DNA of 64,000 bases from an uncultured Dehalococcoidaceae bacterium (GTDB lineage Bacteria; Chloroflexota; Dehalococcoidia; Dehalococcoidales; RBG-16-60-22). The stretch spans positions 45,355 to 109,354 of the forward strand of contig CAZTMR010000001.1 in the NCBI GenBank assembly GCA_964615345.1. The letters run 5' to 3'. The notes below the pieces were generated by a model. The model saw nothing but the letters and a program-made list of their open reading frames with translations, did no database searches and was not told the origin of the DNA. The stretch's first letter is position 1, and every line of letters starts with the position of its first letter. Both the position numbers and the translations under genes were made by a program. Positions 6,837-57,407 of this stretch are shown here, piece by piece.

Positions 6837-6914
6837 TGGGGTGAGTGGAGGGATTTGAACCCTCGATCTCCAGGGCCACAACCTGGCGCCTTAGACCACT
6901 GGGCTACACTCACC
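6837..6914 (-). tRNA. tRNA-His (anticodon GTG) with G-1 and encoded CCA
   Basis: The reverse complement is G-GTGAGTG-TA-GCCC..; the anticodon stem is CCAGG/CCTGG with loop TTGTGGC; the T arm contains GGTTCAAATCC; the 3' end is CACTCAC-C-CCA. Confidence 0.85.
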
Positions 6915-6969
6915 ACAAGGGACATAGCCATTATAGCTGATGGGGAACGGATTTTCAACGTGCGGTCGT

Positions 6970-7281
6970 TTACCTGTCGCTCAGTTCCGCGATGCTGACC
7001 CCGGCGCCGCCCTCCCCATACCCGCCCGGGCGGTAGGACTTGACCAGGTCGTGTCTGGCCAGCTCTCTCCTCACTGCCTCCCGGAGAGTTCCTCCCCCCT
7101 TCCCGTGTATTACCCTGACCTGCCGGTGCCCGGACATAAAGGCGTCATTCAGGTATTTATCAAGCTTCAGAAGTGCTTCGTCCACTGTCATGTGGCGTAG
7201 CTGCACTTCGTCTCCCACTGTCCTCAGGCTGATATGAAAGCGGTTATTCTTCATCGTGCCAGAATACACCGATTGTAGCAC
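6970..7281 (-). CDS. Smr (MutS2-like small) domain protein
   Basis: Contains the [23 protein letters not shown] Smr signature. The start is ambiguous between GTG 7281 and ATG 7254. Confidence 0.7.
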
Positions 7282-7370
7282 CTCCGTGGTTCCGGCACAA
7301 ACCGCGCCAGACGGTTCTTGTTGCTCTCACGGCCAAAGTGCTAGAATTAAAAAGGGGTTTGGTTTTACTT

Positions 7371-10217
7371 ATGCCGCTTGATTCAATTGTTGTCAAAGGG
7401 GCCCGCGAGCATAACCTGAAGAACATAGACATTGTTATTCCCCGGGATAAGCTGGTAGTTATCACCGGTGTTTCCGGTTCGGGGAAAAGTTCGCTCGCCT
7501 TCGATACCATCTACGCGGAAGGTCAGCGCCGCTATGTGGAATCACTCTCCGCCTACGCTCGTCAGTTCCTGGGACGTATGGAAAAACCGGACGTGGACTA
7601 CATTGAAGGATTGAGCCCGGCCATCTCTATCGACCAGAAAGGGCCGAGCCGGAACCCTCGGTCCACGGTGGGTACGGTCACCGAGATTTACGACTATTTA
7701 CGGCTGCTTTTTGCCCGGGTAGGCCATCCCCACTGCCCCCGGTGCGGGCGGGAGATTACCATGCAGACGGTACAGCAGATTGTAGACGCCGTGCAGGGCC
7801 TGCCGGAAAAGAGCCGCATCATGATTCTGGCGTCGTTAATCCGGGACCGGAAGGGCGAATACCAGGCGGTATTTGATGACCTGCGCAAGGCGGGTTATAT
7901 CCGCGTCCGCGTTGACGGGCGCATTTATGACCTGGCGGAGAAGTTCCATCTGGACAAAAACAAAAAGCACACTATCGAGGTGGTGGTAGACCGGCTAATC
8001 ATCGGCCAGAGCGGCGGGCAGAGCCGCATCGCTGATTCCGTGGAAACGGCGCTCAAGCTCGGCGCGGGGGTGGTGCTGGTCTCGATTATCGACGGGGAAG
8101 AACTGCTTTTTTCGGAGCACTTCGCCTGCCCCCATTGCGGCATCAGCCTGGGTGAGATTGCGCCGCGCACTTTTAGCTTCAACAGTCCGCACGGTGCCTG
8201 CCCGGGCTGTACCGGCCTGGGCGTCAAGCTGGAAATTGACCCGGACCTGGTCATCCCGGAACGGGACCTGTCCATCGCCGGCGGGGCCATCCGGCCCTGG
8301 CAGTTTTCCAGCTGGTTCGGCTACCAGTTCGAGTCCCTGGCTCGCCGTTACGGGTTCTCTCTCCGCCAGCCGGTAAAAGAACTGAGCGAGGACAATTTAC
8401 AGGTACTGCTTTACGGTGAAGGTGGTGCCTCGCACCAGTATCGGAACCGCTTTGGAAAAGTAAGGGAATATTTTGAAGGTTTCGAAGGGGTAATTCCCCG
8501 CATGGAACGCCTCTACCGGGATACGGATTCGGAGAACTCCAGGGCGCAAATTGAGCGCTATATGGTCGCCCGCCCCTGTCCGGTCTGCCAGGGTAAGCGG
8601 CTGAAACCGGAATCACTGGCGGTTACCATCGGCGGGCGCAATATTATGGACGTCAGCGCCCTGTCCATCAACCGGTCTCTGGAGTGGATGGCCGCCACCG
8701 GCAGGGACGTGCTCAACGAGCGTGAGCAGATGATTGCCGGGCAAATCCTGAAGGAAATACGGACGCGTCTCGGCTTCCTGAAAGACGTCGGTCTGGAGTA
8801 CCTCACGGTTGACCGGGCCGCCGCCACGCTGAGCGGCGGCGAAACCCAGCGCATCCGACTGGCAACCCAGATAGGCAGCGGCCTGATGGGAGTGCTCTAT
8901 ATCTGTGACGAACCGACCGTAGGTCTGCACCCCGCTGATGATGCCCGCCTCATCGCTACCTTGAAGCGTTTGAGAGACCTGGGTAATACCCTGCTCGTCG
9001 TCGAACATGACGAGGCGATGATGAGGGCGGCCGATCATATCATTGATATGGGGCCCGGGGCTGGAGAACACGGCGGCCGGGTTATTGTTGCCGGCCCTCT
9101 GGCGGAGGTTATCGATTGCCGTCACTCGATTACCGGCCAGTACCTGGGCGGGAAGAAGCAGATCCCGCTTCCGGAAACCCGGCGCCCCGGCTCCGGCGAA
9201 GCCATCCTGGTTAAAGGCGCCCGCCAGAATAACCTGAAAAATATTGATGTGAGCATTCCGCTGGGTAAGTTCGTTTGCGTTACCGGTGTCTCCGGCAGCG
9301 GTAAGAGTACCCTCATTGACGAAATTCTTTACCGCAAGCTGGCACATATATTCTATCGGGCAAAAGAGCGGGCCGGGGCATGTGACGAAATCACCGGCCT
9401 GGAACACATCGATAAAGTGGTTGATATCGACCAGTCGCCTATCGGGCGCACCCCGCGCAGCAATCCGGCTACTTACACCGGTGCCTTTACCCCCATCCGG
9501 GAGCTTTTTGCTACCGTTCCGGAAGCGCGTATGCGGGGCTACGCTCCGGGACGCTTTTCGTTCAACGTCAAAGGCGGCCGCTGTGAAGCCTGCCGTGGTG
9601 AAGGCTATATCCAGATTGAAATGCAGTTTCTGCCGGATGTTACCGTCCCCTGTGAAATCTGTAAAGGAAAACGCTATAACCGGGAGGCGCTGGAAATCCG
9701 GTTCAAAGGCAAGAACATCGCCGAAGTGCTCGATATGACCGTGGAGCAGGCCCTGGCCTTCTTCGAAAATATCCCCAGGGTAAAAACCAAGCTGGCCACC
9801 CTGCATGATGTGGGGTTGGGCTATGTCCACCTCGGCCAGCCGGCGCCCACTCTTTCCGGCGGTGAGGCGCAGCGGGTCAAGCTGGCCACGGAGCTGTCGC
9901 GGCGGGCCACCGGCCGCACCCTGTATATCCTGGACGAGCCGACCACCGGCCTGGCTTTTGGTGACGTGGCGGCTCTGCTCGGTGTTCTTCAGCGTTTGGT
10001 GACTGCCGGCAACACGGTGGTGGTCATCGAGCACCACCTGGATGTAATCAAGAACGCTGACCATGTTATCGACCTCGGCCCCGGTGCCGGTGACCGGGGA
10101 GGCTACATGGTTGCCGCCGGCACTCCGGAAGAAGTGGCCGGAGTAGCCGATTCGGCCACCGGCCAGTACCTGGCAAAAGTCCTGCCGCGGGATGCGGCAC
10201 CGGGGCTGACCGGCTAG
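7371..10217 (+). CDS. uvrA: excinuclease ABC subunit A
   Basis: Two ABC modules (GVSGSGKSS and GVSGSGKST; LSGGE signatures) and Cys4 zinc modules. The start is set at ATG 7371 ([19 protein letters not shown]). Confidence 0.95.
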
Positions 10218-49120: not shown

Positions 49121-50293
49121 TTACAGCAGTGAAGGTATATCCTTGGAAGTATCTTCGATAACTCTGAGCTTGGTCTCCGTCTCCTCCTGCCTTCTCTTGA
49201 ACTCCGGGATAAGCCCGGTCGATTTGATATAGTAGCCTCTCACCTTCTCCAGGTCGCTCAGCTCGGAAAGAATGACGGTAACATCCAGCGCGCCCCTTTC
49301 CCGGGGATAATCGCCGTTTCTAATCATCGCTTCAGGAGCAAGGTCCCTCATGTAGTCCCCCAGAGCCTTTGACAGGTCCATATTCATTTCTTTAGACGGC
49401 CCGGAAAGGAGGTAAAGTGCCCTGCGGGCGTCCACCGGGTTGCACTTCAGTGACAACTCGCTGATAGCCTCATCCATGGTCTGGATGCCTTTCAGCGTTT
49501 CATTTCCCTTCTTACGGAAATCACCGCGCTCGCGGGGGAACTTGAACAGGGGGATATCGGAACGGCCGTAACCGATAACCGTCCAGCCTACCAGCGTCTG
49601 GATGATATCCCCGGCGTCAAGTACTTTTGAGGCTATGTACTTGGACTTTTTCTCTTCACCGGCGCAGAGCATATTGTAGAAAGGCTCCGCAATCATGGCA
49701 TTAATCTTGGACAGATTGCCTTTTATCGATGAATCTTTGCGGACGAACCGCTGGTTATCTACCAGGAACACGGCATCGGCTATTGAATAGCATGACTTCA
49801 AACAGGTGGCCGTGTTGTACACGGTGCGGTCCTCTGTGGTCTCCTCATGCTCGAAAGGTAAAACTATGAGGTTATATACTGGCTTATCCGCGTAGCGCTC
49901 TTTGATTTGCTGTGTCATCACGGCTACGGACCCGGAACCGGTGCCGCCGGCGGCACTGGCGATAAGTAAAAAGGCGTCCGTTTCAAAAAATCTCTTTGTG
50001 GTGCGGATGGAATCAATCACCTTATCGGCGTCTTCTCTGGCTATCTCCGCCCCCAGCTCGTTTATTTTCCCCACGCCGTGCCCGCCGGTCTTGCGCCCGC
50101 CGATAAGGATACGGTGCTGGTACCCACGCTGTATGTTGTGTAACCCGCTCAGGTCGGCCGCATCAGTATTTACGGCGTACGCTCCGGTAATAATTTCTAT
50201 CCCACGACGGCTGCGTGCCATTTTGTTTAGCCTGGAAAACTCGTCGGCAATTCTTCCGCCGCACTGCCCAAAACCGACAACTACTAACTTCAT
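49121..50293 (-). CDS. tubulin/FtsZ-superfamily GTPase, CetZ-like core with an FtsZ-like DIPSLL C-terminal peptide (paralog A)
   Basis: 390 aa. T1 loop MKLVVVGFGQCGGRIADEF; GHGVGKINELGAEIARED; T4 signature AAGGTGSGS (residues ~114-122); PVYNLIVLP; FLVDN; T7-like VLDAGDII (~224-231); GDYPRE; C-terminal ..KDIPSLL. Confidence 0.85.
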   Translation of the reverse strand: MKLVVVGFGQCGGRIADEFSRLNKMARSRRGIEIITGAYAVNTDAADLSGLHNIQRGYQHRILIGGRKTGGHGVGKINELGAEIAREDADKVIDSIRTTKRFFETDAFLLIASAAGGTGSGSVAVMTQQIKERYADKPVYNLIVLPFEHEETTEDRTVYNTATCLKSCYSIADAVFLVDNQRFVRKDSSIKGNLSKINAMIAEPFYNMLCAGEEKKSKYIASKVLDAGDIIQTLVGWTVIGYGRSDIPLFKFPRERGDFRKKGNETLKGIQTMDEAISELSLKCNPVDARRALYLLSGPSKEMNMDLSKALGDYMRDLAPEAMIRNGDYPRERGALDVTVILSELSDLEKVRGYYIKSTGLIPEFKRRQEETETKLRVIEDTSKDIPSLL

Positions 50294-50426: not shown

Positions 50427-52574
50427 ATGGCTAAAGAAACGTCCCGGGACTCCATTATCAATGCGGAAAACAATATCGACGCTTTTGAAAAAGCGGTTGC
50501 CGAGGCAGAAAAACTAAGCCAGGCCGCCAGAAGTGCCGCAGAGGCCTCTACCCGGGCTGCCCAGGAATCTATCAGCCGGGCGGAGGCGATCGGCAAAAAG
50601 GCGAAAAAAGCGGCTGAAAGCTCTGCTGAAGCGGCAAATCAAGCGGTTGAACGCGCCCGCCAGATCTGTAATGAAGCCAGAGTGGCGGCTGAGGAGTCTA
50701 TACGAAAGGCTGAGGAGGCCATAAAGCAGGCGGAGGAATCCGCCCGGGTACCCAAGGAAGCCGCCAGGGGGACCGCCAGAAAGTTCCGGGAAGCGATAGA
50801 GCGTGCTGAAGAGACGAGCCGGGAAGCAATGGAAGCGGCGGAAGCTTCTTTCCTCGCTTCACAGGAAGGGCTGAATCGGGTAGAGGAAATAAGTACTGGC
50901 GCTAAAGAACTGGCTGAATCATCATCCCGGGCGGTGGACGAAGAACTGAAAAAAGCCCAGGAAGCCAGCAGGCTGGCGCGGGAAGTAGCAGAAAGCTCCA
51001 TCAGAGAAGCCAGGCAGGCCTCGGCAAGGGCGGAAAAGGCGAGCCGGGAAGCCCGGGAAGCCGCCGCCGCCGCCGCCAGGGAAGCCCGGGAAGCCGCCAG
51101 CAAAGCGGAAAAGACCGGCCAGGCCACCAGAGAAAACGCGGAAACTTCAGCCAAGGCTACCCGTGAGGTAGCGGAAAAAGCCGAACAGCTCAGCCGGGAA
51201 GCCCGGGAGGTGGCAGAAACCTCTTTAAAGGCCTCTCAGGCTACCACGCAGCGGGTGGAAGAGATAAGCAAGGAAATCAAATCGGTCGCGGCAGCTTCCG
51301 CACAATCGAACCGGCAGGCCGTCAGCAAGATAGAAACATTGAATCGGGACACCAGGCTGGCAGCGGAAGAAGCCTCCAGAGTTGCCCGGGAAGCCGCCGC
51401 TGAATCGACCAGTGCATCACGGGAAGCCATCAGTAAAGTGGAGAGTATCGGCAGTGAAATCAAGACCATGGTCGAGTCAATGGTGAAATCTTTCGGGGAA
51501 GAGATAAGCCAGGTCGAAGCCAAAAGCCAGGAAACGAAAGAGACGGCGGAAGCATCGGTAAAAACGGCACAGGAAGTCTCCGAGGCATCTGTAATCGCTT
51601 CTCAAGAGGCCATAAGCCGGGTGGAAGAAATATGCCAGACCACGCTGCAGACCACCGGAGAATCGGCGAAGTCGGTACAGGAAGCCAGTGACGAAGCGAT
51701 AAAAACCTCCCGGGAAGCGGCGGAAACATCCGTCAGGACGTCTCATGAAGCCATCAGCCAGGCGGAAAAGATAAAGCTGGAATCCAGGGAAAGTGCGGAA
51801 AATCTGTCCCGGTCAGCCATGGAAGCGGTCCAGGGAGCGATAAAAGCGGCGAAAGAAGCCGCGGAAGCCGTTGCCCGGACCTCGCAAGAAGCCATTGAAC
51901 GGGCGGAAGAGATGAACCGGACGACACAGGAAACCGCTGAATCCTCCCGGAAAGCGGTGCGGGAGGCTACCAGACTGGCCATCAAGACCGCCCGGGAAGC
52001 GGCGGAGAACTCGGCAAAAAATTTCGCCGATGCCATAAGCCGGGCGGAAGCCATCGGCAGAGAAACCAGGGAAGCTACCGAGGCTTCGGCCAAAGCGGCC
52101 CGGGAAGCGGCTGAGTCCACGGTAAGGGCGGCTCAGGAAGCCACGGAGGCTGCCGCTCGCGTTGCCAGAGAAGCGGCGGCGGTATCGGTGAAAGCGTTCC
52201 AGGAAGCTATCAGCCGGGCGGAGGCTTCCGGTAAAATGGCGCGGGAAAACGCGGAAGCGTCTCTCAAAGCCTTTGAGAGAGCGGTAAACAAAGATGCGGA
52301 GATTAAAGAAGAGGCTTCCCAGATACTTGAGTTCACGGAGCCGGCGGCGGAAACCAGAGAAGACGCGGCGGAAGACTCGTTGAAGGCCTTTGAAGAGGCC
52401 ATAAACAAAGCTAAAGAGAGCAATGCCGCGGAAAAGAAAAAAGCCAGGCCCTCCAGAGGCAGGGAGAAAATAGAGGCCAGGCTGGATTTTCTCTCCCGTA
52501 TGTATGAGTCAAAGTCAAACGGCGGACCGGAAGAAGACACCGGGAACCAGGATGCTGAAAATGCCCGTAAATAA
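50427..52574 (+). CDS. 715-aa Ala/Glu/Ser/Arg-rich all-helical repeat protein (hendecad-based coiled-coil candidate, CC1)
   Basis: Uninterrupted 715-codon ORF with SD and promoter. There is no signal peptide or TM segment and almost no Pro, Gly or aromatic residues until the last ~45 residues. A recurring (Q/R)EAIS(R/Q)(A/V)E anchor motif is present. The opposite strand carries only fragmented Ala/Ser-rich ORFs. Confidence 0.75.
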   Translation: MAKETSRDSIINAENNIDAFEKAVAEAEKLSQAARSAAEASTRAAQESISRAEAIGKKAKKAAESSAEAANQAVERARQICNEARVAAEESIRKAEEAIKQAEESARVPKEAARGTARKFREAIERAEETSREAMEAAEASFLASQEGLNRVEEISTGAKELAESSSRAVDEELKKAQEASRLAREVAESSIREARQASARAEKASREAREAAAAAAREAREAASKAEKTGQATRENAETSAKATREVAEKAEQLSREAREVAETSLKASQATTQRVEEISKEIKSVAAASAQSNRQAVSKIETLNRDTRLAAEEASRVAREAAAESTSASREAISKVESIGSEIKTMVESMVKSFGEEISQVEAKSQETKETAEASVKTAQEVSEASVIASQEAISRVEEICQTTLQTTGESAKSVQEASDEAIKTSREAAETSVRTSHEAISQAEKIKLESRESAENLSRSAMEAVQGAIKAAKEAAEAVARTSQEAIERAEEMNRTTQETAESSRKAVREATRLAIKTAREAAENSAKNFADAISRAEAIGRETREATEASAKAAREAAESTVRAAQEATEAAARVAREAAAVSVKAFQEAISRAEASGKMARENAEASLKAFERAVNKDAEIKEEASQILEFTEPAAETREDAAEDSLKAFEEAINKAKESNAAEKKKARPSRGREKIEARLDFLSRMYESKSNGGPEEDTGNQDAENARK
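50559..52286 (+). repeat. degenerate in-frame tandem repeats (11-residue modules plus 14-residue spacers; best copies have a 47-aa / 141-bp period)
   Basis: Anchor-motif spacings counted by hand are 25, 36, 47, 47, 47 and 58 residues (14 + 11n) between residues ~249 and 595. The more degenerate N-terminal copies are spaced 32 and 43 residues (21 + 11n). Confidence 0.7.
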
Positions 52575-52647: not shown

Positions 52648-53178
52648 ATGGCCGAGCCGAAGGGAGCTAAAAAAGTCAGCGAAGAGCCTGTGGAGGAGAT
52701 TGTGGAAGAGACAACTGCGGCGCAGGAAGAAGCTCTGGAACCGCCGGAACCGGCGGTAGAAGAAGAAACTACGGACACAAGGCCGCTCGATGAAGTCCTG
52801 GGACAGGCGGAAAAAGCTTACGCCGCTTACATGGAAGCACAGCGCCAGGTAGCCAACGCGTACCGGGGAAACGAGCAACAGATAGCCCGGGCATACCGTC
52901 GGGCGGAGCAGCAGGCGGAAAGCGCCTGCGAGGCGAGCATCAACGAAGCCATAAAGGCCCGGGAAGAGACCATTAACCAGGCGCTGAAAGAACGCGATGA
53001 CGCTATCACCCAGGTGGAAAAGGCCTACCGGAAGACGAAAGAACAGGCGGAAAAAACCTGCGAAGCTGAAATTGATAAAGCCTGGAAAGCGAGAGAGCAC
53101 GCCGTCGAGCAGGCCTGGCAGCTGCGCGAGGAAACTCTCGAGCAGGCCTGGAACATCTACGCCAAGCTGTCAAGATAA
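52648..53178 (+). CDS. 176-aa protein: acidic Glu/Pro-rich N-terminus plus an uninterrupted hendecad coiled-coil (CC2)
   Basis: Strong SD (TAGGAGGT) 5 nt before the ATG. Residues 55-175 parse into 11 consecutive 11-mers. It lies 73 nt downstream of CC1 with no obvious terminator between them. Confidence 0.65.
   Translation: MAEPKGAKKVSEEPVEEIVEETTAAQEEALEPPEPAVEEETTDTRPLDEVLGQAEKAYAAYMEAQRQVANAYRGNEQQIARAYRRAEQQAESACEASINEAIKAREETINQALKERDDAITQVEKAYRKTKEQAEKTCEAEIDKAWKAREHAVEQAWQLREETLEQAWNIYAKLSR
52810..53172 (+). repeat. eleven consecutive 11-residue (33-bp) protein repeats
   Basis: EKAYAAYMEAQ/RQVANAYRGNE/QQIARAYRRAE/QQAESACEASI/NEAIKAREETI/NQALKERDDAI/TQVEKAYRKTK/EQAEKTCEAEI/DKAWKAREHAV/EQAWQLREETL/EQAWNIYAKLS. 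Confidence 0.7.
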
Positions 53179-53248: not shown

Positions 53249-54424
53249 CTATAATAGGGAAGGGATATCTTTAAGGGTAACTTCTATGCCGCGGGTCTGG
53301 CTCTCTATCCCTTCCTGTCTCTTCTTTAGAGTGGAGATAAGATTGATCGCCTTGGTGAAGTAACCCCGTATTTTGGCCACGTCACTGAGCTCGGAAAGAA
53401 TTACCGTAACCTCCAGAGCTCCCCCCTCCCGGGGATAATCGCCGCTCCTGATTACCGCTTCCGGGGTCAGGCTCTTCAGGTAGGTGCCCAGTTCCTTGAT
53501 CAGATCAACGTTCACTTCTTTGGCCGGCGCGGAAACCAGGTATAAAGCCCGCTTTGAGTCCACCGGGTTACACTTCAGGGAGAGCCCGCTTATCGCCTGG
53601 TCCATGGTCTGGGTCCCTTTCTGCGTTTCCGTGGCCTTGTTCCGGAAGTCCCGCGTCCGCTTGAAAAGCCCCCGGGTAAAGGAAAGGTTTGACCTGCCGT
53701 AGCCGATAGTCGTCCAGCCGGAAACGGTCTGGATAATGTCGCCGGCATCAAGTATCTTGGCGCCGATGTGCTTGTGCTTTTTCTCCTCCCCGGCGCAGAG
53801 CAAGTTATAAAAAGGCTCGGTAATGGTGGTGTTGATGCGGGAGAGATTGCTGCGTATGGGGGAATCTTTCATCACGTACCGCTGGTTGTCTACCAGAAAC
53901 ACCGCGTCCGCCACCAGATAAGAAGATTTAAGGCAGGTGGCCACGTTATACACCGTTCTTTCTTCGGTCGATTCTTCGTGTTCAAACGGAAGTACAATGA
54001 GATTGTATACCGGCTTGTCCACGTAGCGTTCTTTAATGTGCTGGGTGATTACCGGCACCGAACCGGACCCGGTGCCGCCGGCGGCGCCGGCAATGAGCAG
54101 GAAGGCGTCCGCTTCAGTAAAGCGGCGGCTCGTCCGGATAATCTCAATGACCTTGTCACCGTCTTCTTTGGCTATCTCCGCGCCCAACTCGTTTATCTTC
54201 CCCACGCCGTGACCGCCGGTCTTGCGCCCGCCAATCAGGATACGGTGTTGATAGTCCGGCCTTATGCCGGTCAGACCGCTCAGGTCGGCCACGTCTGTAT
54301 TTACGGCAAAAGCTCCGGCGATGATGTCAATCCCGCGCTGGCCGCGCGCTTTCCTATTCAACCGGGCAAACTCATCGGCGATTCTTCCGCCGCACTGCCC
54401 GAAACCAACTACCACAATTTTCAT
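53249..54424 (-). CDS. tubulin/FtsZ-superfamily GTPase, CetZ-like core with an FtsZ-like DIPSLL C-terminal peptide (paralog B)
   Basis: 391 aa, colinear with paralog A. MKIVVVGFGQCGGRIADEF; GHGVGKINELGAEIAKED; GAAGGTGSGS; PVYNLIVLP; FLVDN; ILDAGDII; GDYPRE; ..KDIPSLL. Confidence 0.85.
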   Translation of the reverse strand: MKIVVVGFGQCGGRIADEFARLNRKARGQRGIDIIAGAFAVNTDVADLSGLTGIRPDYQHRILIGGRKTGGHGVGKINELGAEIAKEDGDKVIEIIRTSRRFTEADAFLLIAGAAGGTGSGSVPVITQHIKERYVDKPVYNLIVLPFEHEESTEERTVYNVATCLKSSYLVADAVFLVDNQRYVMKDSPIRSNLSRINTTITEPFYNLLCAGEEKKHKHIGAKILDAGDIIQTVSGWTTIGYGRSNLSFTRGLFKRTRDFRNKATETQKGTQTMDQAISGLSLKCNPVDSKRALYLVSAPAKEVNVDLIKELGTYLKSLTPEAVIRSGDYPREGGALEVTVILSELSDVAKIRGYFTKAINLISTLKKRQEGIESQTRGIEVTLKDIPSLL

Positions 54425-56879: not shown

Positions 56880-57407
56880 TCAGTCTCCAGTCCGCTCAGA
56901 ATGGTTGTTTATTATTATCGCCAGGGCTTTCCTGACCGCGTCGGCGGCATCATTCGCCGGGATAATGCCCCCGTCCATCTGTCCGTTGCGGAACAGCGAC
57001 CAGGTATTGAGCCCGATAACCGGGATTCCGTTCTGCAAAGCGTGCCCGATCTCTGACAGTGTCCCGTAGCTGCCGCCGACGGCGATTACCGCCCGGCAGG
57101 ACTTTACCACGATAACGTTGCGGGCATAGCCCAGCCCGGTCACGATGGGTATCTGCACGTACGGGTTGGCCGTCCGGAAGCTGTCTCCGGGAAGAATACC
57201 GATGGTTGTTCCTCCCTCCTCGCTGGCTCCCCGGCAAGCCGCTTCCATTACTCCCCCCAGCCCGCCACACACCAGGGCGGCGTCTTTTTTCGCCAGCTGC
57301 CGGCCGACTTCACCGGCGGTGCGTAATTCGGACGCTGAAGCGTCTCCGCCGCCAATAACGGCGATACACACTTTCTGTTGACGGCTCGTTTTCGGCATAC
57401 TAATCAA
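56880..57407 (-). CDS. LOG/TIGR00725-family Rossmann-fold protein
   Basis: VIGGGDAS..ALVCGGLGGVMEAACRGA..GGTTIGILPG..AVGGSYGTLSEI. Confidence 0.7.
   Translation of the reverse strand: MISMPKTSRQQKVCIAVIGGGDASASELRTAGEVGRQLAKKDAALVCGGLGGVMEAACRGASEEGGTTIGILPGDSFRTANPYVQIPIVTGLGYARNVIVVKSCRAVIAVGGSYGTLSEIGHALQNGIPVIGLNTWSLFRNGQMDGGIIPANDAADAVRKALAIIINNHSERTGD

Follow-up and report, generated by a model that had tools for sequence, protein, structure and literature searches.

Two CetZ-like genes with the same C-terminal heptapeptide

The window analysed here, a stretch of 64,000 nucleotides from an uncultured Dehalococcoidaceae bacterium (contig CAZTMR010000001.1, positions 45,355 to 109,354), carries two paralogous genes, here called A and B, encoding CetZ-like GTPases of the tubulin/FtsZ superfamily. 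The two proteins share 72% amino-acid identity and both end in the heptapeptide KDIPSLL, the subject of this work (the features of the locus are collected in Table 1). Comparison with other family members shows this tail to be the Dehalococcoidia form of a putative C-terminal docking motif of the CetZ family.

Table 1. Position in the window of the two CetZ-like genes, their C-terminal elements and the coiled-coil genes between them
Feature	Position	Strand	Basis
CetZ-like paralogue A, tubulin/FtsZ-superfamily GTPase, 390 amino acids (aa)	49121..50293	-	Open reading frame (ORF), Pfam, PDB sequence match, AlphaFold2
CetZ-like paralogue B, 391 aa	53249..54424	-	ORF, Pfam, 72% identity to A
Tail of A, K384-D-I-P-S-L-L390	49124..49144	-	Sequence; stop codon 49121-49123
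Tail of B, K385-D-I-P-S-L-L391	53252..53272	-	Sequence; stop codon 53249-53251
Long C-terminal helix of A (residues 349-383), H11 and charged extension carrying the tail	49145..49249	-	AlphaFold2 model
C-terminal helix of B (~residues 350-384)	53273..53377	-	Inferred by alignment to A
CC1, 715 aa, Ala/Glu/Lys-rich, repetitive; candidate partner	50427..52574	+	Between the paralogues; no Pfam/NCBIfam match
CC2, 176 aa, helical, downstream of CC1; candidate partner	52648..53178	+	No family above threshold

Both proteins match the Pfam Tubulin/FtsZ GTPase domain PF00091 (E=1.9e-31 for A and 1.3e-31 for B) and, exceeding the gathering score in each case, PF21011 (CetZ_C; E=2.4e-15 and 1.2e-20, respectively). 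Their C-terminal domain is CetZ_C and not PF12327 (FtsZ_C), and the FtsZ equivalog model TIGR00065 scores 51-61 bits on A and B against a cut-off of 295. The G-G-T-G-S-G signature is found in both as AAGGTGSGS, with G116, G117, T118, G119 and G121 invariant or nearly so among 81 family members. The T7 loop, with LDAGDIIQT carried by both paralogues, has its acidic residue where ‘vlDagDiiqtl’ of A pairs with ‘vvDssEiintl’ of Haloferax volcanii CetZ1 (E218 of CetZ1). A phmmer comparison with PDB sequences places A closest to H. volcanii CetZ1 (4b46, E=1.9e-43) and then to CetZ2 (4b45). An AlphaFold2 model of A built on the 81-sequence alignment reached a mean predicted local distance difference test score (pLDDT) of 93 and a predicted template-modelling score of 0.91; with this model as query, Foldseek ranked CetZ1 4b46 (E=1e-33), CetZ2 4b45 and 3zid (CetZ of Methanosaeta, M. 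thermophila) before every FtsZ entry, the target-normalised template-modelling score being 0.91-0.92 for CetZ1 and CetZ2. An earlier reading of the same DNA, made without database searches (hereafter the sequence-only reading), had ascribed CetZ-like cores to both proteins, and the Pfam Tubulin and CetZ_C matches together with the best structural matches, Haloferax CetZ1 and CetZ2, bear this out.

Identity of A and B to archaeal CetZ is 25-33%. The CetZ family is described as specific to archaea; here the host is bacterial, and the gene order is common to more than 60 Dehalococcoidales genomes, therefore ‘CetZ-like’, as used in PMC9871819, is the safer name. In its available text that phylogenomic survey (Santana-Molina et al. 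2023) already includes CetZ-like proteins of Chloroflexota-Dehalococcoidia, the Dehalococcoidia sequences forming CetZ-like groups that are paraphyletic.

Conservation of the tail

Read on the minus strand, the last codons of A (49121-49144) are AAG GAT ATA CCT TCA CTG CTG TAA and those of B (53249-53272) AAA GAT ATC CCT TCC CTA TTA TAG, both translating to K D I P S L L and a stop; the sequence-only reading had given the peptide and these coordinates, stop codons included, correctly. It had also described an identical end on otherwise divergent C-termini, and this description stands: A and B are 75% identical over residues 1-350, 45% (15/33) over residues 351-383 and 7/7 in the tail. The A/B alignment contains 11 runs of at least seven identical residues, thus the pair alone is weak evidence of constraint. 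Between A and B the tail shows synonymous differences in five of its seven codons and no non-synonymous one, which excludes a recent gene conversion and shows purifying selection. Chance and gene conversion were both rejected on these codon differences and on the retention of the tail in orthologues.

The constraint was quantified on 115 Dehalococcoidia sequences, comprising both paralogue classes and a third class of ~45% identity, with weighted columns. The tail has an entropy of 0.62 bits, compared with 1.85 bits for the 33 residues ahead of it and 1.02 bits for the core; neither P387 nor L389 ever varies, and the tail is the lowest-entropy stretch among the C-terminal 40 residues, which answers in the affirmative whether orthologues conserve the peptide, a check that the sequence-only reading had proposed. 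The 120 closest database relatives all end in [KRS][DE]IPSLL followed by no more than two additional residues, B-type orthologues end in KDIPSL[LI], and in A, B and nearly all orthologues the motif is the end of the protein. Within the window, no real reading frame has the pattern D-[ILMV]-P-x-[LFYW]-[LIF] anywhere but at the C-termini of A and B. The tail is therefore real and under strong purifying selection. Covariation between tail and core was judged unreliable because the tail has undergone few independent changes.

The terminal motif in the CetZ family

About 1000 relatives were retrieved when 1.84 billion cluster representatives were searched exhaustively with HMMER. Many full-length ones, 25-54% identical, end alike, with DLPSLE, DIPLLL, ELPLLL, DIPTLL or EVPSLL, and others with DLPSLLD, DIDSLL, DIESLL, DLEPLF or DIQPLF. 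A strict pattern, [ILVM][PDE]xL[LFI] inside the last 14 residues, is present in 18/74 distant full-length relatives, while shuffling the last 40 residues gave 0.5 expected (at most 4 in 1000 shuffles), and 0.7% of internal windows contain the pattern. Two distant Pro-containing relatives were assigned, roughly, to bacteria from their neighbouring genes (GntR, SBP_bac_5), and one relative, from a Bathyarchaeia archaeon, ends in KDIPPLL.

With this KDIPPLL protein as query a set of 120 canonical archaeal CetZ was retrieved, which covers Halobacteria, Methanomicrobia, Syntropharchaeia and a Bathyarchaeia group that ends in KDIPPLL. The C-terminus is [DE][DE][LI][DE][PS]L[FIY] in 111/120 of them (e.g. 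DELDPLF, DELESLF, DEIDPLFE). Counted from the C-terminus, the shared register is an acid (-6), an aliphatic residue (-5), any residue (-4), Ser/Pro (-3), Leu (-2) and a hydrophobic residue (-1), and D-I-P-S-L-L agrees with it at every constrained position. Pro at -4 is found also in Bathyarchaeia, and Pro at -3 in 65/120 archaeal CetZ.

For one of these proteins the role of the tail has been addressed experimentally. The available part of a preprint (bioRxiv 10.1101/2024.04.08.588506) describes the LESLF of H. volcanii CetZ1 as a conserved, function-critical tail, reports that CetZ1 with LESLF changed to AESGG no longer supports rod development, and predicts that the tail touches the neighbouring subunit. 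The accessible text of a later paper (mBio 2026, PMC13556191) does not mention the tail. The sequence-only reading had considered the combination of a CetZ-like core and an FtsZ-like tail as unusual in itself; of that reading, the CetZ-like core, the charged helix, the conserved tail and the FtsZ likeness are upheld by the present analysis, while the unusual combination is not, since the terminal motif ends 111/120 archaeal CetZ at the same spacing from the core and the CetZ1 tail had already been described. The tail is a known family trait, and the family itself had been reported before from this host group.

The helix preceding the tail

In the AlphaFold2 model of A, residues 349-383 form a single continuous helix (block pLDDT 88-90), which agrees with the charged helical linker of the sequence-only reading, and the last seven residues are coil (mean pLDDT 81 over residues 381-390). 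The linker had been said to have drifted. This is correct for A versus B, which are 45% identical there; within each class it is conserved nearly at core level (entropy 0.75-0.85 bits in the linker versus 0.52-0.58 in the core, within one paralogue class), with the consensus LIPEFKkRQEETE.KLrA.eD.S in A-type and aInLI..LKKRQEG..s.qRGId.ti in B-type proteins. That the tail alone is conserved, a possibility that the sequence-only reading had asked to be checked, was accordingly rejected. The class-specific helices suggest, by their sequences, paralogue-specific contacts.

The distance from the GDYP motif to the aliphatic residue of the tail is 59 residues in 228/235 Dehalococcoidia sequences, and 53-63 residues in 118/120 archaeal CetZ, with a mode of 60-61. 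The spacing is fixed, we propose, because the continuous helix predicted at 349-383 holds the tail, and a spacer conserved in this manner is more readily understood as a structural ruler than as a flexible tether.

Two readings that dispense with an assembly contact can be weighed against these features. PDZ domains recognise non-polar C-termini, as do proteases such as ClpXP or Ctp. The tail is placed exactly at the C-terminus, with Ser at -3 and a free carboxylate behind two hydrophobic residues, and its S-L-L-COOH conforms to class I ([ST]-x-hydrophobic-COOH); it could be a turnover signal or a PDZ-type ligand. We regard this as very improbable: Pro replaces Ser/Thr at that position in 65/120 archaeal CetZ, the conserved acid at -6, the aliphatic residue at -5 and the fixed spacer are left unexplained, and the CetZ1 tail mutant, as described in the available part of the preprint, loses function, the opposite of what the removal of a degron would bring about. 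In the second reading the tail targets the membrane directly, in the manner of the amphipathic helices at the C-termini of FtsA and MinD; this reading finds some support in the hydrophobic extreme C-terminus and in the localisation of CetZ1 near the envelope (available text of bioRxiv 10.1101/2024.04.08.588506). Seven residues with an invariant Pro, predicted as coil and devoid of basic-hydrophobic periodicity, do not make an amphipathic helix, and on account of the length, the Pro and the predicted coil a membrane-targeting helix was rejected; the likelihood that we leave to this reading is close to nil.

Resemblance to the C-terminal peptide of bacterial FtsZ

FtsA, ZipA, SepF and others dock on a conserved peptide near the C-terminus of bacterial FtsZ. 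The cognate peptide was defined on the 120 closest relatives (P0300-P0419; Dehalococcoidales FtsZ where named) of the ftsZ product of a related locus, L063. It is EDELDMPSFLRRPLF; E[DE]ELD[MV]PSFLRRP, followed by ~28 further residues, is present in 120/120. Compared with it, the tail of A and B has identical D, P, S and last L, and the replacements of M/V by I and of F by L are conservative. Compared with the general FtsZ core D/E-[IV]-P-x-[FY]-L, D-I-P-S-L-L agrees at 5/6 positions, the aromatic position being Leu. The FtsZ likeness noted by the sequence-only reading is thus genuine, the tail being close to the LD[MV]PSFLRRP of the same lineage. Its classification as an FtsZ-type hub peptide is not supported: the motif is attached to a CetZ core, it is preceded not by a disordered linker of variable length but by the predicted helix 349-383 and a spacer of 59 residues in 228/235 sequences, and no basic segment trails it, as it ends the chain.

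The Dehalococcoidales FtsZ proteins (P0300-P0419) have a peculiarity of their own, a conserved ~28-residue extension (RRPLFSHRRH ... RHFQ) after LD[MV]PSFL, which reaches much beyond the usual short variable end.

The tail might nonetheless function as a mimic of the FtsZ peptide that binds FtsA, and perhaps SepF, and so tethers the polymer to the membrane or the divisome, or competes with FtsZ. The residues shared with the FtsZ of the lineage (D, P, S and the final L, with two conservative positions, 120/120) are in line with such a role, as is the match of the tail I, L and L to I374, F377 and L378, through which E. coli FtsZ makes its main hydrophobic contacts with ZipA. An invariant Pro is likewise what bacterial FtsZ would have, as a nearly universal Pro characterises the FtsZ C-terminal domains of bacteria and not those of archaea (PMC8178401), and in D. 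mccartyi FtsA is encoded beside FtsZ (DET0342/0343, PMC5102406). L063 has a canonical ftsZ (242-1369) 5.5 kb upstream of its CetZ-like module (B at 6852-8027) and on the same strand as the latter; the interval contains a SLOG-family gene, eno, two other genes and gap.

L063 is the only related locus at which a canonical FtsZ was found near the module; the corresponding position of the window, upstream of the SLOG gene, is occupied by a small membrane ORF and pth. Genes for FtsA, SepF and ZipA were sought near the module; none of them was found within the window, and none for FtsA or SepF beside the module. To our knowledge, archaea lack FtsA. The motif spans the whole CetZ family including these archaea, and the form with Pro at -4 is found in Bathyarchaeia as well. 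Moreover, the tail ends the chain where the FtsZ of the lineage continues with RRP and ~28 residues, the element before it is a predicted rigid helix of fixed length and not a disordered variable linker, and the aromatic position is Leu. On balance, binding to FtsA or SepF is a possibility that we hold unlikely.

Coiled-coil neighbours and the host locus

Between the paralogues lie CC1 and CC2, on the strand opposite to A and B. We scanned for the locus with one genome per species and obtained 74 loci, whose titles are nearly all Dehalococcoidales, Dehalococcoidia or Chloroflexota; the order eno-gap-B-(CC2,CC1)-A-dnaX-recR is seen in most of them. CC1 occupies the same position in ~50 Dehalococcoidales loci and CC2 adjoins CC1 in ~55, and the two accompany A and B even where these are adjacent (L052, L074, L061, L065). 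The four-gene module (A, B, CC1, CC2) is conserved in ~50 Dehalococcoidales loci, which is good evidence of a function shared by CC1/CC2 and A/B. The proteome of D. mccartyi, in which the tubulin-like protein btf_0551 is detected, contains an abundant tubulin-like GTPase that co-varies with an equally abundant hypothetical protein encoded nearby (PMC8163811); their orthology to the A/B locus is not confirmed.

Given this linkage, the tail could dock onto CC1 and/or CC2, which would serve as scaffold or adaptor of A/B polymers. In addition to the order eno-gap-B-(CC2,CC1)-A-dnaX in ~50 loci and the persistence of the coiled-coil genes where A and B adjoin, each neighbour has short conserved non-repeat segments that are possible docking sites: in CC1 the C-terminal segment KIEARLDFLSRMYES (aa 682-696, 52470-52514), after a variable basic stretch, and in CC2 a Tyr/Ala-rich core (aa 44-95, 52777-52932) and a C-terminus with EQAW..Y.KL. 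Linkage, however, signifies a shared function and not that the tail is the contact. The tail is unchanged at seven loci without an adjacent coiled-coil gene (L050, L053, L056, L058, L062, L066, L067) and is kept throughout archaeal CetZ, where relatives of CC1/CC2 are not known; besides, the coiled-coil proteins are without a membrane segment, hence by themselves they provide no membrane anchor. We therefore consider CC1 and CC2 improbable as the docking partners. Since the tail is kept both without coiled-coil genes and in archaea without FtsA, neither the coiled-coil proteins nor FtsA are likely as the general partner.

The other genes of the window are bacterial housekeeping genes (dnaX, recR, recO, lysS, gap, eno, pth, F1Fo ATP synthase genes, sigma-70). 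Archaeal DNA mis-assembled into a bacterial bin was considered as the origin of A and B and rejected, as the gene order repeats in dozens of independent Dehalococcoidales assemblies; the locus is native to the bacterium and is not a chimaera.

Several features of the window and of related loci are recorded here in their own right. A SLOG cluster4/LOG-like protein (PF18306, E 9e-44) is encoded at 56880-57407 of the window next to eno, and likewise in L063. Three loci (L053 8730-9936, L056 3042-4248 and L058 8730-9936) have a third, divergent CetZ-like paralogue, ~45% identical and ending in GDELPTLD, directly upstream of a CetZ-like gene, with no CC1/CC2; two of these genomes are titled Deltaproteobacteria and are perhaps mis-binned. 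A distant CetZ-like protein, P0555, ending in ALLPDL, is encoded on two contigs of one assembly (L075 10001-12305 and L076 10001-12296), surrounded by resolvases, IS66 and IS605/TnpB transposases and a group II intron reverse transcriptase, with a gene of 324-327 aa of unknown function downstream; this locus may be a mobile CetZ-like cassette. The A-type orthologue is broken into two overlapping ORFs in L038 (14405-15610), by a frameshift or an assembly error, and is interrupted by masked bases in L016 (14187-15114).

A proposed contact between subunits

We propose that the tail docks on an adjacent CetZ-like subunit (A or B) and forms a clasp within a protofilament or sheet, a reading that draws on sequence comparison, structural modelling and analogy and to which we give about an even chance. 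The helix of ~35 residues, H11 with its charged extension, would project from one subunit and hold the tail 59 residues from GDYP, at a fixed distance from the GTPase core, the fixed length of the helical spacer suggesting a defined geometry and not a flexible tether. The tail would then act as a short linear motif, its Ile, Leu and Leu side chains and free carboxylate entering a hydrophobic groove of the partner protein, and this docking contact would be required for the cytoskeletal function of the polymer. A pocket of the same type for A and B would account for the identical peptide, while the helices may have diverged for paralogue-specific roles. A subunit is favoured as the partner because, among the candidates, only a CetZ core accompanies the motif in every case.

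Several points weigh against a contact between subunits. Which partner the tail has in this bacterium, and that the tail is required there, we infer by analogy. The subunit contact of CetZ1 is itself a prediction in the available part of the preprint that describes it, and an effect of the tail mutation on polymerisation is not reported in that text (bioRxiv 10.1101/2024.04.08.588506). The tight linkage to two coiled-coil genes at ~50 loci leaves room for an external partner. Finally, residue by residue the tail is nearer to the FtsZ of its own lineage (D-[MV]-P-S-F-L) than to the archaeal CetZ consensus (E-L-D-P-L-F), and, like bacterial FtsZ, it has an invariant Pro (position -4; PMC8178401).

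Significance

If the tail is only a contact between subunits, which we judge most likely, it is an ordinary family feature in a new host. CetZ proteins are usually described as archaea-specific cell-shape regulators, and the cultured relatives of this bacterium among the Dehalococcoidales are wall-less, disc-shaped and covered by an S-layer. Another outcome would be that the ancestral CetZ tail has been tuned, by Pro at -4 and the Leu-Leu end, to FtsA/SepF anchors and is a functional FtsZ-peptide mimic; we think this quite doubtful. Were it true, the tail would use the same docking site as the host FtsZ (LD[MV]PSFL), jointly or in competition with it, and a cell-shape system of archaeal type would be coupled to the bacterial divisome in a wall-less, disc-shaped lineage. 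The question raised is whether a CetZ-type polymer docks on itself, on its coiled-coil neighbours or on bacterial FtsZ anchors, and the answer would show how this branch of the tubulin superfamily connects to the cell envelope. The Dehalococcoidales offer a second, independent system for finding the partner of the CetZ tail. The Pro-containing form, its near-identity to the peptide of the host FtsZ and the conserved four-gene module make a reasonable experimental lead, not a surprise.

Comparison with known systems

The closest known counterpart is the tail of archaeal CetZ (DELESLF in CetZ1, DELDPLF in most), which is like that of A and B in family, fold, extreme C-terminal position, register, distance from GDYP and the long helix preceding it. 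The hosts differ, being archaea in one case and a bacterium (Dehalococcoidales) in the other. Position -4 is Asp/Glu in archaeal CetZ and invariantly Pro in Dehalococcoidia, the last residue is Phe in the former and Leu (or Ile) in the latter, and the Dehalococcoidia tail is much less acidic. Unlike archaeal CetZ, A and B are two conserved paralogues that flank two coiled-coil genes. The same protein group was treated by Santana-Molina et al. 2023 (PMC9871819), in the available text of which the terminal peptide, the A/B pair and the coiled-coil neighbours are not described.

With the bacterial FtsZ peptide the tail has in common the core D-aliphatic-P-x-hydrophobic-L and the nature of a short linear motif on a tubulin-superfamily protein. 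The FtsZ peptide follows a disordered linker, is usually succeeded by basic residues, contains an aromatic residue and belongs to an FtsZ_C core, whereas the CetZ-like tail follows a predicted helix, ends the chain, has Leu at the aromatic position and belongs to a CetZ_C core.

A third comparison is with TubZ and PhuZ, the plasmid and phage tubulins, whose C-terminal tails bind the next subunit of the filament. They belong to other subfamilies, their tails bear no sequence relation to those of A and B, and the tail of PhuZ uses acidic residues; the subunit contact is known for TubZ and PhuZ, while for CetZ1 it is a prediction and for A and B our proposal. What they have in common with A, as modelled by AlphaFold2, is the architecture, a long C-terminal helix that leaves the core and is followed by a short tail.

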